A program made the translations under genes and the position numbers. This document shows positions 941 to 10,120 of a stretch of 39,184 bases of DNA, in pieces. The DNA is taken from UHGV virus genome UHGV-1367746; one strand, given 5' to 3'. This DNA comes from a virus. Numbering within the stretch: the first letter of the stretch is position 1; each line of letters starts with the position of its first letter. Below the pieces are notes generated by a model. It was not told the origin of the DNA. It did no database searches and was given only the letters and a program-made list of their open reading frames with translations.

Positions 941-2707
941 CTAGTGAAACGTAACGTAGGCCCCTAGTCCCAGCTCGTCGTCCGTATCGTGAGTTACTCG
1001 GACCCCATTGTCCCAGAACTCAGTGTGGATGGACTCGAAGCCTTTCCGTGGGTTCTCCATCTGTTCCTCCAGCCACTCCTCAGTGACTTCACGTTCGCCT
1101 TTGTTGGCATCCTTAGCCATAGACTCAACGAAGAACTGTACACCGATAGCCAGCGCATCAAGTCGGTCATCGTGTGCCAAGGCTCCACGTTCACGAGAGA
1201 TACGGGTCATCTGGTAGAAGAGAGAGTAGATAGGGTTACGAACACCATCCTTATCAGAGGCTGACTGGTAGTCTTGGACGATAGCAGCAGCGTTAACGAT
1301 AAGTCTGTGAGACCCCATGATAGGCTCCAGAACGTCACAGATGCGGAGTTCCTTCTGACCCTTACTCTTCACTTCAGTTACAGCCGCAGGATGGATACGG
1401 GCCGCTACAGGCTTGAATAACTCAAGGTACATACCATCACCGAAGTTACCCTCAATGACGTATTCGTTGACCTTCCACTTACGACCAATCTTAGCCAGAG
1501 CTTCCAGAGTAGAGTCTTCATAACCTCCACGCATACCACCAACTTCCATAGCGAAGATGTAGCCGTTGAGCTGGTATAGTACCGCATATCCAGTTTCATC
1601 CTTACCACGACCACTAGGGTCAATGACCAGAATCTTCTGGGTGTACGAGCTGAAGGCAGAACCTACAGTCTGATACGTGTGGTATGAGTCACCCATGAGT
1701 CCAACGTTAGGAACGTCCTCACGCTTGTTCTGAGGGTTAGGAAGCCATTGGTAGACCATTGGGCTAGACGCTGGGTCCAAGTCTGCTACGATAAGGTCAC
1801 GGAGCTTCAGAGGGTACTTCTCGGCATCACTCAGGTTAGGGTTAAGCATGAACTGTAGAGCGAAGCCAGCTTTACCATAAGACAGCTCACGTTCCTTCAG
1901 GTCCGTATCATCGAATCGTACTTCATCGGTAGGACGCCAGTAGAAGGACTCAGGGTCCTCTTCCAGCTCTGCCTGAAGCATCGGTGCCAGACGGTCGCCG
2001 TAAGACTGCCAGTCCTTCTTATCACGTGGATAACGAGCAGGCCAGATAGTAGTGGTGTATCCACGGCCTTCCAGCTCACGATACAAGGTCATCTCGTTCT
2101 GAGGAGTACCCAGATAGATGATTGTACCTCCCGGCTTCAGGATAGCGTCGAACTCTTTCACAAGCTCTGACAGACGGTCTCTGGCAGCCTGAGTCGCTGA
2201 GTTGTTCGGAACCTCCACGTCATCGGCAATCAGGATGTCAGCACGACTACCAGTCAACTGACCAGTGATACCAACAGACTTAACCGAAGGTGAGTGGTCT
2301 GGCTTGGCTGGCCCAACGTCGAAGCTAATAACCGCATCTCGCTGTCCCTGCTTAGGTTTGAGTTCCTGAAGCTGAGGCATGAGGTCGATGATTCGCTTGA
2401 TGAAGATGGAGTTCGCATCGGCTCGTTCCTTTGAGGCCGACACAATCATGAACTTCAAGTCTGGGTTGTTCCATAACTTCCAGACCACGAAACCACAGGT
2501 CAGAAACGACTTGCCGATACCACGGAAAGCCTGAAGGATGAAGCGGCGATTATCCCCAGCAGCCAGCTTCTTACACATATCTATCTGGCAGCGTGTTGGA
2601 ACCGGAAGGCTAAGAGCTTTCCAGAGAACGAAGATGAAGAATACGAAGTCGTCCCTCATCCTTCGGGTCATTTCTGCCTGTCTTTCAACAGGTGTTTTCT
2701 TAGACAT
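941..2707 (-). CDS. Terminase large subunit (T7 gp19-like, DNA maturase B)
   Basis: 588 aa; extended identity to remembered T7 gp19 ([96 protein letters not shown]). Confidence 0.95.
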
Positions 2708-3137
2708 AGAGTCCCTCCAGCATTAGGTCCCGGACAGAGATAGCCTCCTCTAAAGTAGGACGTGTTGTTCGCATATAGACATTCCCGCGTTTAACCTGAA
2801 TCCTATAACCATTCTGGTGACGGGTAACGCACTTCACTCCCGTCTTAGAGTCATAATGGCTACCCGTATTCCAAGTGTTCTCAGCGGCAGTAACGAGCCG
2901 TAAGTTACTTAAGGTATTATTGCTGGGGTTCCTGTCGATGTGATCTATTTGCATACCATGTGGTATAGGACCATTGGTTAGTTCCCATATCACGCGATGT
3001 GCCCGCTTACTGCCTAGACTTCGTGTCTGTACTATCCAATATCCCATCCGACTTAATGTCCCCACAGGCTTTCCAGTCCTAACGGAGACCAGACCGGATG
3101 GACTCGCCTGGTCCACTTTGTAGTAATCACTTAACAC
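2700..3137 (-). CDS. HNH homing endonuclease (free-standing)
   Basis: 145 aa; HNH motif region [41 protein letters not shown]; inserted between spanin and large terminase genes and overlapping both ends by a few nt. Confidence 0.85.
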
Positions 3138-3564
3138 CTTGGAGCCTCCTTATTGTGTCCTGAAGCGCCTTCTCCTTAAGGTCTGCCTCCTGAGTTATTC
3201 GGATAAGACTTTTAGAAGTTTCTGGGTGTAGTTCGACTCTACCATTAGGGAAGCATCGACTGACATCTGACTCGGTGAGACCTGAGGTGTTGACCTTGAC
3301 GCGCAGCCGCTTATTGTCAGACTTAAGGTCAGCAATAATCCTATCAGTGCTGCCTTCCAACGAGGACATTTCGTCCTGAAACCGTTTGGACACTTTGTTG
3401 ACTTCAGCTTGGACAGCAAGCCTTGTATCTTCCGATGCCTTAAGATTCGAGGTGTATTCTGCATTGACCTTAGCCTCCCACTTATTGTTAGCGGTGTGGT
3501 AGCCACCAGCAAACATCACTGCTGCAAGTAACCACGGAGCCGCTCTCTTTAAAAATTCGAGCAT
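3127..3564 (-). CDS. i-spanin (Rz-like, T7 gp18.5 homolog)
   Basis: 145 aa; N-terminal TM segment; similarity to T7 gp18.5 (MLEFL..., LEGSTDRII.DL.SDNKRLRV.V.T, ALQDTIR.LQ). Confidence 0.85.
   Translation of the reverse strand: MLEFLKRAAPWLLAAVMFAGGYHTANNKWEAKVNAEYTSNLKASEDTRLAVQAEVNKVSKRFQDEMSSLEGSTDRIIADLKSDNKRLRVKVNTSGLTESDVSRCFPNGRVELHPETSKSLIRITQEADLKEKALQDTIRRLQGVK
3195..3419 (-). CDS. o-spanin (Rz1-like lipoprotein) embedded in +1 frame of the Rz gene; start uncertain
   Basis: Embedded frame encodes hydrophobic signal plus lipobox LTISGC followed by short mature peptide; no ATG or GTG near the signal peptide, TTG at 3419 is one candidate (ORF track uses ATG at 3512). Confidence 0.4.
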   Translation of the reverse strand: MLSKLKSTKCPNGFRTKCPRWKAALIGLLLTLSLTISGCASRSTPQVSPSQMSVDASLMVESNYTQKLLKVLSE

Positions 3565-4120: not shown

Positions 4121-4162
4121 AAAACCTCCAGTTTAAAGCGGGTCGTCCTTGACCCAAAGTTG

Positions 4163-6163
4163 TTACCAGTAGTACCAATCACCTTTCCTACTTCTAATTA
4201 GAACAGAGCAATCGGCAACGGGTACTGTAGATACCCCACCAATCCTTATCTCATATAATTTACTGGGTAGTCTTTTCTTAGTTAGAGATGCTTTAAAATC
4301 TGTACCGGTTACAGTGATATATTCTGTCCCCTCCTCACTAGCTATCTGTAGGTCCAGACCACTGGGACTTGCTGGCAACTTAACATAAAGCTGCTGTTCT
4401 GCTGTACTACCGGCGAAATGACCGATAACGGTAGTTGTCCACTCACTCAAAGTCAGCCCTGAGCGCACAAAATCTACATTAAGGGGTTCCTTAATAAGTG
4501 CAGCAGGTGCGTTGTAATTATGCCCGTTAAGTACATAGTAGTTGCTGCTACCAACCTCTACTGTGTCTGCTGTGCAATAGGAGTGGAAGGTTCTTGAATT
4601 ATCAAAACGATAAAGACTTCTGATTAGCACACGCTCTTGATTACTTCTGGTTAAGATACCACAACCAGCAGATAGGTGAAGTGTAGAGATGGTAAGTGTA
4701 TGACTCTCGCTGTTAGCCTTAGACGACAATAATGATACCTTCGGCTCACCCACCTGAGTGAAGTCTTTACTGTTGCCCTCGCAGTACATAACCCCAATGT
4801 CCCACGCAGCAGGGTCCATTGTTACCACACCAGCACCAGATGTATTCTCAGAGCAAATCACACCAACACTAGTAGATAAACCACGACCTAAGATAATACC
4901 AGCACCTATCGTATATTTACTCGCATCATCTGTGATTGGGTCATAACCTAGTCCAGTAGACTTATCTGTACCCCATGCACTAATGTGAGGGAAGTGTGTA
5001 GCATTTACATAGGTATCCCCTTGCTCACCTTCCGTTGAATAACCTAATGCCACGCCCCTTGCACAGTTGTTTGCATGGAGAGTACCCATTTGAAAATACC
5101 AGCAAGCAAACATTACAATGCCATATCTATTAGCATTATATGCATAGATACTACCCATCTCGGATTCTGCACACATTAGTCGTGCGTAAAAACCATACGA
5201 TGCAATGTCTGCACAGTCTATGTTAAGACTGCCAATCAAACGTAGCCCTCGTACTTGGTTCTCAGTATTAGCTACATCAACGGTTTTGGTTCCAATAGGA
5301 AATTTACTAACACGAACAACAGATTTTAATGCAGGCCATGTTGGACCAATTGCTTTAATTGTTGCCCCATTTAGATTCCCACGTAGGTAAGAGGGGATAA
5401 CAACCTCATCTGTTACGTGGTAGGTAGCCTTGCCATCAAGGTTTAATGTGCCTGTAGCTATGGCCAATTTTATAGCAGGTAGACAGTCAAAGCTGGGGTC
5501 GTTCGGGATTGCCCCAAAGTTCTCAGGTGAGTGCTCATCAAGCCCATTCAGCTTACCTACGTTAGTCCAATTGGAATCAGGGGTTGAACCTGCAGGCACT
5601 GTTTTTGGGAGAGCACCATCCCAGCGGTAATAATAACCATCCTCTTCCCTTAGCAGGACCTCGTTCCATAGTGTAACGGTGAAGCCTTTCTCGAAGGAGC
5701 TACGGGTAATATAGCCAATTAGACCAGCCTCCCTGATACTCGAAACTATTCGTCGTGCTTCGTCCTCGCTATCCTTAGCGCTGCCAGCAGAGTTACCAGC
5801 AGCATCGGCATATTCCTTCGCTAAGTCAACAGTTTGGTCTCGCCCTTCTTCTGCAATATGGATAGCCTGAAGCTCCGAATTGGTCAGGTCACTAGCTGTC
5901 AACACTGAGCCATTCCTGAAGTCTACCACTAAGTCAGTTCCAGTCTGACGGTGAATACGAACGACGTCGAAACCTGATTGGTCAGCCAACATCTCAATCA
6001 TCGTTGGATTAAGGAATCGGTAATCTCGACCAACTTCTAGTACACGGTTCAGGGCAGGGTTAGAGCTATTCACCAGCGTAACAACAACAAACGTTCTGGC
6101 TAGGTAGTCGAACTCAATCCTGTACCGAGTGTTTCCTGAAGGGAATTGTGTAATCGTGGACAT
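4163..6163 (-). CDS. Tail fiber / tailspike (gp17): T7-like N-terminal adaptor domain with divergent C-terminal receptor-binding domain
   Basis: 666 aa; N-terminal about 150 aa matches T7 gp17 (F.YLAR.FVVVTL, DYRF, D.T.GS.L.A.DL); remainder lacks T7 shaft repeats and looks like a beta-helix tailspike (inference). Confidence 0.9.
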
Positions 6164-6209
6164 TATGCCTCCTTTGTGATTTAAATGGAGACCTATGGTA
6201 GCGCCTCCA

Positions 6210-6232
6210 GTTTCCTATAGTGATAGTTTAGT
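6210..6232 (-). promoter_or_regulatory. Phage RNAP promoter (phi17-like), +1 at 6215
   Basis: Minus-strand CTAAACTATCACTATAGGAAACT upstream of tailspike gene with AAGGAGG RBS. Confidence 0.75.
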
Positions 6233-9200
6233 CCTTGATGTGGATGCCTTGCTCCTCAAACGTTCCAAGTAACAGCTTCTGGGTAATTGGGTCGTTCGGA
6301 ACCAGTTCACGGAACGTATTATACATCCCGGTCATGTAGTCACGCTCGTTGACGCGAGTATCAGCCTTGAGGTAGCCAGCCAAGTTGTAAGCCGAAGCGC
6401 CAACGTTAGCAGCATATCCGAAAGCTGGAACCTGCTCCAAGAAGTTACCAACAACATTCATAACAGGGTCACTTGTAGCCGCACCATACGCGATGGCACG
6501 TTCAGGCTTCTCTGTAGGCGAACGAGGTAGGATAGACGAACGGAGCATCTTAGTGTCCTCATACCCAGCGATGCCACCCAGAATGTTAGCTACCCCAAGT
6601 GGACCACCCAGATGTGAACTACGGGACAGAGCCGCATAACCAATCATCGTCGGGTCAAGAGCTTGCTTGAGGTATTCACGGTCTCTGCCATCCTGCATAG
6701 CGTAAGCCTTGACGTGAGCCTGAGCCATGTAGTAGATACCAGCCAGACCCATAGACATCACGGTAGATAGAGCAGCATCCATCGCTCGGTTGTTCTTCGT
6801 GGCGTTATAGAAGGTTCGCATGGTACGTCCATTGATGGACTTGATGACGAAGTTCTTAAACTGAAGGACAGTCTTAGCGAGAGGACCATAAGCCTTGGCA
6901 TCCATGTTTGACAGCTTGTGGGGCCGGAGTAACGTTTCGTCAGCGATGGTGTCACCCATACGCCACAGGTCCATAGCCCTTGGGTCCTGACTGAACGCCC
7001 TCTTATCCTTGATGGTGTACTTCCCGTCTGGACCACGAGTCACTGACTCACGGATTAATGACTTAATGCCCTTCCACTGCTCGTCAGATATACCAGCGGT
7101 CTTCAGCCAGCGGTCATCGAACTTACGCTTACTACCAGTCAGGCTATGCTCCACGATGTCAGACAGGAAGCCTTGACGTCCAGCATCTAACAGGTAGTTG
7201 GTCGTACCGTTGAGAACTTTAGTGAACGGAGAGCGTACTGCAAGTTCACCAGTGTAATACTTGGCAGTCCCCAGAGCTGTAGCTGTACCACGACCGAGGT
7301 CACTGTAAGACCGCAGACGGTCAATGACATCCTGTTTAGATGGGCGTATTGAGTCATCAAGTTCCTTACCAAAGATAACATTGTGCAGGTCCTTAATCTC
7401 TGAGGCCCCAACCTTCTTGTTACGGAAGGCTAGGTCACGGAAAATTGGGACTCCATGCAGCATTGCACGAACGTTACCACGGGCCAGCATACCACCAATC
7501 TCCGTTAAGTTCTGAACACCCATATAGGCATTCTTAGCGAAGAACGATAGGTCTGTCATTGTGCGCATCACGGTAGCGAAGGCTGCATCGTCAGCACCAT
7601 CACGTCGAGCACGACCAGTTAGAATCTTAAGTGTGTCACGCAAGGTAGATACTTCACCTTTCAACTTTCCGTCATCACCAGCCTTGTTCATCATGGTCTC
7701 AACCAAGTCCTTCATTTCTTTCGTTGTCTTGCCTGTACCAGCCATAATAGCAATGTCACCATTAACTCGACGGTTGTATGCCGGGACAATCTTGTCCATG
7801 TCCCACTCACGCAGGTTGTTGACACTGAAGGTTTGACCATTAGGAAGAACTATTGACATATCGCTGTCGAACAGGTTACGAGCCTCAAGGAAGCTGTTGT
7901 TCTCCAGACCCACCAGACCATTGATGTTCTCTTCCATTACGGATGAACGCTCGAACTGCTCGGTGTGAGAGATACCATAAGCCTTATCGTTGGCGTACTT
8001 ATCTACCGCAGCCGCAAGTCCTTCTGGAGTCAACGTAGGGTCAGCCTCTAAGAGTGCCTCGTCCACACGTTTCTTGACCTCAGGTCGAGACGCATAGCTG
8101 GTCAACCATGACTTCTTGATGGCCTCCTGTAGTGCCTCTGGACTTCCAAGTTCCTTGATGTACAGCTCCTTCATCTGGTTGCTATATACATGTGGGACGT
8201 AGGTTCCCTTGAATCGGCTACCCGGAAAGATAGACTGAGCGTCTGGACGACCAAACATCGCCGGGTTCTCCATCATCTCACGCTTGGCGTCAAACTGGTT
8301 CTTCAGCAGGTCATAGACTTTCAGTTCTCCCGGAGTCAGTTCAGCCTTCAGGTTCCCACTTCCGTCTTCAATAGCCATAGACACACGCTGGTAGATGTCC
8401 TGACGGAATGCGCCAGAGTCTCTCCAGAATGCTGTCTGGAAGTATGGGTCCTTGAGCGCCTCAGTAACCGCGTCGTCGATGTCGTTGTAGAACCGATGGT
8501 CCACAGCACGAAGTCTCTCGAATACGTCTGACGCAGTGGTCCCGATTTTACCTGAGGCCCCTGACTGCATACCGGTTGGTGAACGCACTAAGTCGGCAGC
8601 GACTCCACGAATCTCAGGGTTCTCAGACCGAAGCAGCTTCAGGCCAATCTCAGTTAGTCCACCAAGGTTCACACCAGCAGCTGCACGTTCAGGCTCAATC
8701 ACTTCGTCAAAGACCTTACGTGTCTTAGGGTTCAGAGGGTTCTCACCAATCAGTATTGAACCATCTTCAAGTCGTACACTACCCGGCTCATTCGGAACGT
8801 CAGCTAACTTAACGCCTTGATGACTAAAGGTCTCCTCACCTTCTTGAATAGGTAGACGAGACAGGTCCTGACCATCAACGTTACGGGCTGTCTCACGAGC
8901 TTCCAGACGTGTGGCTGGACCAGCGAACTCGTTAGTGTTACGACCTAAGGCTCTGCCTAAACCATCAGCGATAGCAGTCATACCTCCACCGAAGAGAGCA
9001 CCGCCAAGGATAGCCTCAGCCACATGAGCATCACCGCCAGCCACTGAGGTACGGGCCATCTCGGACACACCAGCCAGTGCTCCAGATTGAGCAGCCACGG
9101 TGAACATCTTGTTTACTAGCTTACCACCTTTACCAACCTGTCCAGCTATAGGAACGTAGGTCAGCGGGTCTACACCAGCACCAATCACACCAGCAGCTAA

Positions 9201-10115
9201 CTGAGCACCAATCCCTGCCTTGGCCTTCTCTTGGTCCAACTTCTGGTTCTCAAGCGCCAAGTTAATAAGCTCGGTCAGGTTCTGAGGTGAGCCACCAGTA
9301 ATGACCCCGTAATACTGAGGAAGAACTCCAGCGTTACGAATCTGGTCCAGCTCCTCACGAGACCACTTATGGTTGTTCCATCGCGTCGGGTTGAACACAT
9401 CGCCAATGACATCCAGTGAGTCCTCAGTCTGACCAGCGCGGATAGCCACGCCGACCATAGAGTTCTTCACTTCAGCTTCTGTAGCCGCACCAAAACCAAA
9501 CCACGTAGAGCGGTCTTCTCGCTCCTGCATGGTCTTGCCAGTAGATTTATAGAACATCTCACCGAACGATTCGTTTGGAGCTTCAGGTGCTTGACCCTCA
9601 ATATTCAGACCAGCAGCGGTCGGAAGGTTCTCACCCAGAGCTGCTTTAGGTTTAGCCTTGAGTCCTTCCGTGAGTGCGTCAAATACGTTAGCGCTTACTG
9701 GTGGAGTCTTTGGGCTAATGCCATTGAGTGCTCGTGCGACTCCCTTCTGATAGACTTCAGGGTCGTACCGGGAGCCTGTCTCATGGAAGCTGATAGCTTG
9801 AGCCAGAGAAGACAGGGTGTCAGGGTCCGATAGGTCGAGACTCTGGGTAGCTGGAATACCAGTTGCAGCCACCACTGAGTCAATATAAGCCTTAGTGTCG
9901 TTCTCGTTAGGAGGTGCCCATCGGTTGATAATCTTCTCGATGGAGTCATAACCTCGGCGACCGTAGGACAGCAGGTTTTTACCTAAAGCTCGGACGCCAG
10001 ACTCTGGACTATCGAAGGTGACGAATGCGCCATCATCTCCAGTCATTCCTTCCCATTGGTCCTTACTTACCCGGATGTTACCCGGATTGTTATTGCGAAT
10101 ACCACGAGTCGCCAT
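6228..10115 (-). CDS. Internal virion protein D (gp16-like) with non-SLT N-terminal domain
   Basis: 1295 aa; long colinear similarity to T7 gp16 from about residue 200 onward (GA.L.AG.IGAGVDPL.YVP, RLEARETARN, VRSPTGMQSGASGK, NPA.FG, GTYVPHVY, SRPEVK.RVDE, GDIAIMG.TGKTTKE, RSPWTK.LNGTTNYLLDA); N-terminal about 190 aa unlike T7 transglycosylase domain. Confidence 0.9.
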   Translation of the reverse strand: MATRGIRNNNPGNIRVSKDQWEGMTGDDGAFVTFDSPESGVRALGKNLLSYGRRGYDSIEKIINRWAPPNENDTKAYIDSVVAATGIPATQSLDLSDPDTLSSLAQAISFHETGSRYDPEVYQKGVARALNGISPKTPPVSANVFDALTEGLKAKPKAALGENLPTAAGLNIEGQAPEAPNESFGEMFYKSTGKTMQEREDRSTWFGFGAATEAEVKNSMVGVAIRAGQTEDSLDVIGDVFNPTRWNNHKWSREELDQIRNAGVLPQYYGVITGGSPQNLTELINLALENQKLDQEKAKAGIGAQLAAGVIGAGVDPLTYVPIAGQVGKGGKLVNKMFTVAAQSGALAGVSEMARTSVAGGDAHVAEAILGGALFGGGMTAIADGLGRALGRNTNEFAGPATRLEARETARNVDGQDLSRLPIQEGEETFSHQGVKLADVPNEPGSVRLEDGSILIGENPLNPKTRKVFDEVIEPERAAAGVNLGGLTEIGLKLLRSENPEIRGVAADLVRSPTGMQSGASGKIGTTASDVFERLRAVDHRFYNDIDDAVTEALKDPYFQTAFWRDSGAFRQDIYQRVSMAIEDGSGNLKAELTPGELKVYDLLKNQFDAKREMMENPAMFGRPDAQSIFPGSRFKGTYVPHVYSNQMKELYIKELGSPEALQEAIKKSWLTSYASRPEVKKRVDEALLEADPTLTPEGLAAAVDKYANDKAYGISHTEQFERSSVMEENINGLVGLENNSFLEARNLFDSDMSIVLPNGQTFSVNNLREWDMDKIVPAYNRRVNGDIAIMAGTGKTTKEMKDLVETMMNKAGDDGKLKGEVSTLRDTLKILTGRARRDGADDAAFATVMRTMTDLSFFAKNAYMGVQNLTEIGGMLARGNVRAMLHGVPIFRDLAFRNKKVGASEIKDLHNVIFGKELDDSIRPSKQDVIDRLRSYSDLGRGTATALGTAKYYTGELAVRSPFTKVLNGTTNYLLDAGRQGFLSDIVEHSLTGSKRKFDDRWLKTAGISDEQWKGIKSLIRESVTRGPDGKYTIKDKRAFSQDPRAMDLWRMGDTIADETLLRPHKLSNMDAKAYGPLAKTVLQFKNFVIKSINGRTMRTFYNATKNNRAMDAALSTVMSMGLAGIYYMAQAHVKAYAMQDGRDREYLKQALDPTMIGYAALSRSSHLGGPLGVANILGGIAGYEDTKMLRSSILPRSPTEKPERAIAYGAATSDPVMNVVGNFLEQVPAFGYAANVGASAYNLAGYLKADTRVNERDYMTGMYNTFRELVPNDPITQKLLLGTFEEQGIHIKD

Positions 10116-10120
10116 TATGT

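Follow-up and report, generated by a model that had tools for sequence, protein, structure and literature searches.

Exchange of receptor-binding modules behind a conserved virion anchor is well documented for the tailspikes of Kayfunavirus, Kuttervirus, Lederbergvirus and other phages (PMC10408124, PMC11990801). For several Kayfunavirus spikes O-serogroup specificity has been confirmed experimentally (PMC10408124), and the BASEL study describes the spikes of Kayfunavirus and Lederbergvirus as enzymatic, pectin-lyase-like O-antigen modules mounted on variable anchors (PMC11990801). The tailspike module decides which surface polysaccharide a phage can infect, and since it picks that polysaccharide, it also sets the serotype that is infected. 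Here we describe a spike of this kind in a viral genome, UHGV-1367746, of which a stretch of 39,184 nucleotides (the window) was analysed. The gene at 4163..6163 encodes a Kayfunavirus tailspike that consists of an anchor and an exchanged cassette, and we consider it likely that the latter is a glycoside hydrolase, with O-antigen as the favoured substrate.

Genome setting and probable late expression of the tailspike gene

Written in reverse orientation, the window covers nearly all of a Kayfunavirus genome (K1F-like; Autographiviridae, Studiervirinae), and all large ORFs are on the minus strand. Its first 25 kb are 95.5% identical to Escherichia phage TM1 across 93% of their length and 93-95% identical to more than 100 other Kayfunavirus-type phages. 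The tailspike gene and its immediate surroundings comprise the following features.

6228..10115, minus strand: gp16, internal virion protein of 1295 aa, upstream of the tailspike gene
6214..6227, minus strand: core of a phage RNA-polymerase late promoter, ACTATCACTATAGG, which lies 37 nt upstream of the tailspike start codon and directly follows the end of gp16 (stop at 6228)
6168..6174, minus strand: Shine-Dalgarno sequence AAGGAGG, read from the upstream sequence, 4 nt before the tailspike ATG
4163..6163, minus strand: tailspike gene; the coordinates are those of exactly one ATG-started ORF of 666 aa plus stop codon
3926..4120, minus strand: class II holin of the T7 family (gp17.5; PF10746, 2.1e-22), downstream of the tailspike gene

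The gene order is gp16, tailspike, holin, gp18, Rz, and the succession of gp16, tailspike and holin is identical in TM1. Beyond the holin lie gp18, the small DNA-packaging protein (PF11123), Rz (PF03245), an HNH endonuclease and the large terminase. With gp16 upstream and holin, gp18, Rz and terminase downstream, the gene thus stands where T7-like genomes have gp17 (tail fibre/tailspike), between gp16 and the holin gp17.5. A tailspike protein of identical sequence is encoded on four metagenomic contigs of ~39 kb, in unchanged gene order.

It appears that this gene, which encodes the single receptor-binding tailspike of a K1F-like T7 relative, is transcribed late from a phage-polymerase promoter of its own. 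The promoter core occurs 11 times in the window, always on the minus strand (828, 6214, 13491, 18464, 19470, 22291, 28373, 30724, 31700, 33456 and 36776), against 0.23 copies expected by chance, and as far as can be judged from these motifs the 11 copies give a putative transcription map of the genome. Scans for sigma-70 promoters and intrinsic terminators revealed no excess over the shuffled expectation. A terminator between spike and holin was considered because of a 5-bp hairpin just past the tailspike stop (4140-4155, minus strand), but its folding energy is no better than that of shuffled sequences (z -0.72) and it was rejected.

Two further observations concern the genes downstream of the spike. 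An HNH_3 endonuclease gene (2700-3137, minus strand; Pfam 6.7e-21) intervenes between Rz and the gene of the large terminase subunit, with an overlap on either side. In TM1, the closest phage, this site is without a gene, and an HNH homing endonuclease is found between gp15 and gp16; the window has a gap of just 5 nt there (10116-10120), so mobile endonuclease content varies among near-identical genomes. Moreover, Rz (3127-3564) contains an embedded out-of-frame ORF (3195-3512, minus strand) that probably encodes the Rz1 o-spanin; the annotation of phage ZG49 has an embedded spanin at the equivalent place.

A conserved anchor, an exchanged cassette and their junctions

The gene divides into an N-terminal part that is conserved within the genus and a C-terminal part that is not.

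5819..6163, minus strand: T7 gp17-type anchor, residues 1-115, predicted to dock the spike on the tail (adaptor/nozzle), from PF03906 and the alignment with PDB 7boz
5705..5818, minus strand: neck or linker rich in Ala, Glu and Asp, residues 116-153, conserved within the genus and without assigned domain
5573..5704, minus strand: Tail_spike_N (PF18668; CBA120 TSP1/gp66 type), residues 154-197, the end of which is the recombination junction
4167..5576, minus strand: receptor-binding cassette that has been exchanged, residues ~197-666 (gene nt 588-1997), from pairwise blastn
5511..5590, minus strand: junction island of 80 nt (gene nt 574-653), 85% identical to the UP17 tailspike gene by blastn

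An earlier sequence-only reading had likened the first ~150 residues to T7 gp17, quoting the motif F.YLAR.FVVVTL, and had set the remainder apart from the T7 fibre. The motif is present at residues 18-30 and the likeness is real, but it is shorter than claimed. Pfam Phage_T7_tail (PF03906) covers residues 10-114 (60.9 bits, gathering cut-off 25.2, 1.5e-16), and T7 gp17 (PDB 7boz, a chain of 553 aa) can be aligned to residues 6-115 only (E 4.8e-16) rather than over the full length of a T7-type fibre. Indeed, no homology to the shaft and C-terminal tip of T7 gp17 (T7 residues ~150-553) was detected, and the ~470 residues of the remainder match neither T7 gp17 nor any Pfam family (E<=10). The genus-conserved anchor nevertheless extends to residue ~196, beyond the strictly T7-like ~115 residues, since it includes the neck and a second small domain. 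Residues 116-153 may serve as this neck. The small domain, Tail_spike_N, scores 50.2 bits against a cut-off of 25 (2.7e-13), and CBA120 TSP1, TSP3 and TSP4 in the PDB match residues 151-199. It closes the conserved part of the protein, and it is here that cassettes are exchanged by recombination. The protein is most likely trimeric, and six such trimers would be held on the tail through the gp17-type anchor (residues 1-115) and the neck.

The comparison at the DNA level places the junctions precisely. Among 161 phage records that match the gene, 158 do so only over nt 1 to ~587-590, at ~94% identity, and the remainder of the gene is found in just three: TM1 (99.3%), EFA-1 (98.1%) and EFA-2 (92.8%, from nt 350). 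Such a split between a shared anchor and an unshared cassette (161 versus 3 records) is far beyond chance. Against Kayfunavirus ZG49, which carries other spikes, blastn identity of 94.7% ends at gene nt 587 (window 5577) and returns, at 98%, with the stop codon at nt 1998 (window 4166). The modular swap that had been proposed from the sequence is therefore borne out, with identity to other Kayfunaviruses stopping at nt 587 and resuming at the stop codon. In the reciprocal case, a SU10-like phage of ~72 kb, nt 595-2001 are the sole aligned part (blastn, 85.9%). For the unrelated myovirus Phapecoctavirus UP17 the sole DNA similarity consists of two overlapping patches within gene nt 541-653, across the junction, the larger of which is the 80-nt island; the flanks of this island show no DNA-level alignment. 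The island is likely a recombination hot spot, and it fits the conserved junction motif that has been proposed as a recombination site (PMC10408124).

The records of EFA-1 and EFA-2 deserve a comment of their own. 'Enterococcus phage EFA-1' (GenBank MT350292 / MT350293 with EFA-2) is a Studiervirinae genome ~95.6% identical to the window, and EFA-2 is a Studiervirinae record with the same tailspike module. The EFA-1 protein is flagged UNVERIFIED_ORG by NCBI, and the host label Enterococcus faecalis is almost certainly an error, since both are T7-like phages of enterobacteria.

Fold and spread of the cassette

AlphaFold2, run on residues 199-666 with a 27-sequence alignment, returned a model with mean pLDDT 86.8 and pTM 0.72, in which three parts can be distinguished.

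4535..5569, minus strand: right-handed parallel beta-helix (pectin-lyase fold), residues 199-543, the putative glycan-binding/glycanase body
4481..4534, minus strand: linker between helix and C-terminal domain, residues 544-561 (346-363 of the modelled part), of low confidence or disordered (pLDDT <50)
4190..4480, minus strand: C-terminal 8-stranded jelly-roll beta-sandwich, residues 562-658

Residues 199-543 form a long series of short beta-strands in this model, with block confidence mostly at 87-97. A Foldseek search against the PDB retrieved the depolymerase spikes Klebsiella Kp7 gp52, K2-2 TSP, Depo32, CBA120 TSP2 and Acinetobacter AM24 at probability 1.00 (E 1e-7 to 1e-4, 9-13% identity), and the body is thus a right-handed parallel beta-helix of the pectin-lyase fold. 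The look of a beta-helix noted from the sequence is confirmed by the model, and reading the part as a non-spike fibre tip was rejected on this result. The structural neighbours, 10-17% identical, include non-hydrolases: the AlgE4 epimerase, RbmB, the K1 and K5 lyases and the adhesin PfbA. The jelly-roll domain (562-658) is probably a trimer-stabilising or accessory carbohydrate-binding domain.

At the sequence level, residues 199-666 alone match no Pfam family at E<=10, PF12708 included, and in PHROGs they find a single weak tail-fibre family (9e-5). PDB sequences, searched with the single sequence and with the family profile, gave no match across the helix body, and matches to beta-lactamase and CD8 were spurious. 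The family profile does match the N-terminal cap motif of the GH55 protein 5m5z (3.5e-10); the cap motif of the present protein, FGA..D...D, includes D226. A search with pectate-lyase-like families had been suggested as a check on the fold: PF12708 (Pect-lyase_RHGA_epim, formerly Pectate_lyase_3) misses the protein itself, but it is matched by 6 of 18 diverse relatives, at best with 6.9e-17.

How far the module has spread was addressed with a word-indexed search of 5.8 billion proteins, which gave 66 relatives, and by scanning 1.84 billion cluster representatives exhaustively with HMMER. Only 35 clusters were found in the latter (13 with E<1e-30); the family is small. Its members are attached to the following anchors and contexts.

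T7-type anchor, 666 aa (Kayfunavirus): the present protein
Longer T7-type anchor, 768 aa: module identity 93-94%
Protein of 866 aa: module identity 93%
Tail_spike_N-only anchor, SU10-like phage: module identity 91%
Spike of a Proteus vulgaris prophage, flanked by T7_gp14-like ejection proteins on one side and a holin/endolysin cassette on the other: module identity 55%
Myoviruses of ~150 kb, UP17 and Dompiswa TSP7_1: module identity 41%
P22-type head-binding domain (PF09008), E. coli prophages: module identity 38-41%
Phage_tail_fib anchors: module identity 31-34%
Aeromonas phage KLEA5: module identity 30%

One of the P22-type copies resides in a textbook P22-like prophage with the order gp7, gp20, gp16, arc/ant, tailspike, integrase. 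Bacterial genomes with prophage copies are E. coli T43, CE0021a and GCA_000408625, together with genomes of Salmonella, Proteus and Providencia. Behind other anchors (the SU10-like phage and other Studiervirinae) the identity of the cassette is 86-94%. Many anchors joined to one module are the signature of a receptor-binding module that is traded horizontally. The SU10-like metagenomic phage of ~72 kb encodes two Tail_spike_N spikes in a row, the first of 942 aa and the second of 692 aa (contig L004, 4791-10079). The second of these carries the module at 91% amino acid identity behind a different N-terminus, and its neighbours are the other spike, a SU10-type adaptor and a portal gene; the close match points to a recent cassette transfer between podovirus lineages of very different genome sizes.

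It is conceivable, though we put this forward tentatively and hold it to be somewhat doubtful, that the cassette (197-666) is the founding member of a small and divergent depolymerase family (35 clusters, without solved structure and invisible to Pfam here), with a glycan specificity that is perhaps unrepresented among characterised phage enzymes. The cassette circulates at >85-90% identity in at least three unrelated virulent backbones, and it would thus be a natural building block, ready for use where phages or tailocins are to be retargeted to an untyped enterobacterial serogroup.

Candidate receptor, candidate activity and relation to known spikes

The groove of the beta-helix most likely binds a repeating surface polysaccharide of the enterobacterial host and then cleaves it, which would let the virion descend to the outer membrane. 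The expectation that this domain would name the host surface receptor does not hold from sequence at present; the characterised relatives are too distant. By analogy, O-antigen is favoured over capsule as the predicted substrate. Homologous modules serve P22-like prophages of E. coli and Salmonella, where the anchor is of the P22 head-binding type and the group has been described as specific for O-antigen. The O-serogroup specificities confirmed for other Kayfunavirus spikes (PMC10408124) and the BASEL description of Kayfunavirus and Lederbergvirus spikes (PMC11990801) count in the same direction. These considerations argue against the alternative that the substrate is a capsule (K-antigen) or other exopolysaccharide, for which several points can nevertheless be made. 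K1F, the type phage of the genus, targets the K1 capsule, the top Foldseek matches are capsule depolymerases of Klebsiella and Acinetobacter, and a K32 capsular depolymerase (Acinetobacter, by annotation), 31.6% identical to the module over 209 aa, is the one relative whose substrate has been annotated, although the specificity of relatives that are 30-40% identical cannot be transferred with certainty. On balance we regard a capsular substrate as rather unlikely and retain O-antigen as the prediction. The serogroup was also sought through prophage copies: the cassette DNA has no match in 5,426 complete E. coli genomes, and the variant from P22-like prophages, 40% identical, occurs in just two complete E. 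coli genomes, which come without serotype names.

Candidate catalytic residues emerge from an alignment of 38 family members that reaches down to ~27% identity. Acidic residues kept in at least 32 of the 38 are D226, E253, D316, E333, E380, D383, E439 and E462; K280, R284, S286, Y326, S334, W355, N387 and Y460 are kept as well. D226 and E253 belong to the N-terminal cap, which in the profile search matches the GAxGDGxxDD motif of GH55 glucanases, mannuronan epimerases and iota-carrageenase, and they are probably structural. The six other carboxylates are on the helix body, and their conservation suggests a putative glycanase. Among them, E439 and E462 are 23 residues apart and each ends a long strand on consecutive rungs of the AlphaFold2 model, a layout that might suit a catalytic pair. 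In Acinetobacter, most of the characterised spikes with this type of fold are hydrolases, and some are lyases or esterases (PMC11126041). Given this prevalence, the conserved carboxylates, the PF12708 relatives and the annotated depolymerase, carboxylate-catalysed glycoside hydrolysis is the favoured chemistry, with D316, E333, E380, D383, E439 and E462 as candidates, and we hold this reading, the overall architecture included, to be probable. Against it count the missing Pfam match of residues 199-666, the failure of sequence searches to find any solved structure across the helix body, and the low identity of the structural neighbours, some of which are not hydrolases.

The main chemical alternative, a polysaccharide lyase within the same architecture, is improbable; it would act by beta-elimination on a capsule or O-antigen that is acidic (uronic-acid-containing). 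Lyases and hydrolases cannot be told apart by their fold alone; retention of the six non-cap carboxylates, as in glycoside-hydrolase tailspikes, and the preponderance of hydrolases among the characterised Acinetobacter spikes (PMC11126041) speak against it. Still less credible is a non-catalytic adhesin that would set host range by reversible binding of a surface glycan or protein without degradation, since conservation of the acidic residues and of the ES, GETGD, SE and YxE motifs stays strong down to 27% identity as the other surface diverges, relatives in P22-like prophages stand in the position of enzymatic tailspikes, and the Kayfunavirus spikes known so far are enzymatic; as against the favoured glycoside hydrolase, a pure binder is a minor prospect.

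How does this spike compare with described proteins? Its closest counterpart is the 'tail fibers protein' of TM1 (USL94541.1, OM908436), a full-length match of 99.3% at the nucleotide level and 99.6% at the amino acid level in the C-terminal module. A nearly identical module has thus already been deposited under that annotation, by which alone it is known. The TM1 protein likewise has 666 aa and an equal genomic position, but the TM1 backbone is ~4.5% divergent from the window and the HNH endonuclease insertion sites differ. The tail fiber protein of 'Enterococcus' phage EFA-1 is a second close match of the full gene, also known from annotation only.

Solved examples of the same anchor exist in two tailspikes of related phages: PDB 9vvr ('Tail spike protein', 843 aa, 18 chains) is near-identical over residues 1-198 (E 6e-114), and PDB 9lna ('Tail fibers protein') is a clear homologue across residues 2-206 (E 7e-66). 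In both, similarity ends at residue ~198-206, and their receptor-binding parts have no sequence kinship to the present module. T7 gp17 shares the N-terminal tail-attachment domain (residues 6-115) and the genome position, but its shaft and tip are absent, with Tail_spike_N and a beta-helix spike in their place. K1F gp17, an endosialidase, shares genus and anchor, and K1-specific Kayfunavirus records match nt 1-587 at ~94.6%; however, the K1F protein has a beta-propeller of the sialidase type and a C-terminal chaperone domain that undergoes autocleavage, whereas the present module is a beta-helix with a jelly-roll, and neither the sialidase beta-propeller nor the Peptidase_S74 chaperone has a Pfam match in the present protein. 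The P22-type head-binding domain PF09008, present on the 38-41% identical E. coli prophage homologues of the C-terminal module, is likewise absent from it by Pfam. CBA120 TSP2 (O157 O-antigen-specific; PDB 5w6p, 6w4q) is 10-11% identical and its helix body has no sequence match; it is part of the branched four-spike complex of a myovirus, whereas the present protein is the single spike of a podovirus. The PF12708 tailspike depolymerases, such as the K-specific spikes of Acinetobacter, have the fold and the N-terminal cap motif in common with the module, but their HMM reaches distant relatives and not the present protein, which belongs to a small, divergent branch (35 clusters).

The exact junctions and the list of natural anchors can be used for host-range engineering and for predicting the hosts of metagenomic phages. 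The design itself is ordinary and well described: an exchangeable beta-helix module follows a conserved anchor, with Tail_spike_N at the junction. Since the principle is already documented for related phages, what this locus contributes is one more uncharacterised specificity rather than a new mechanism.
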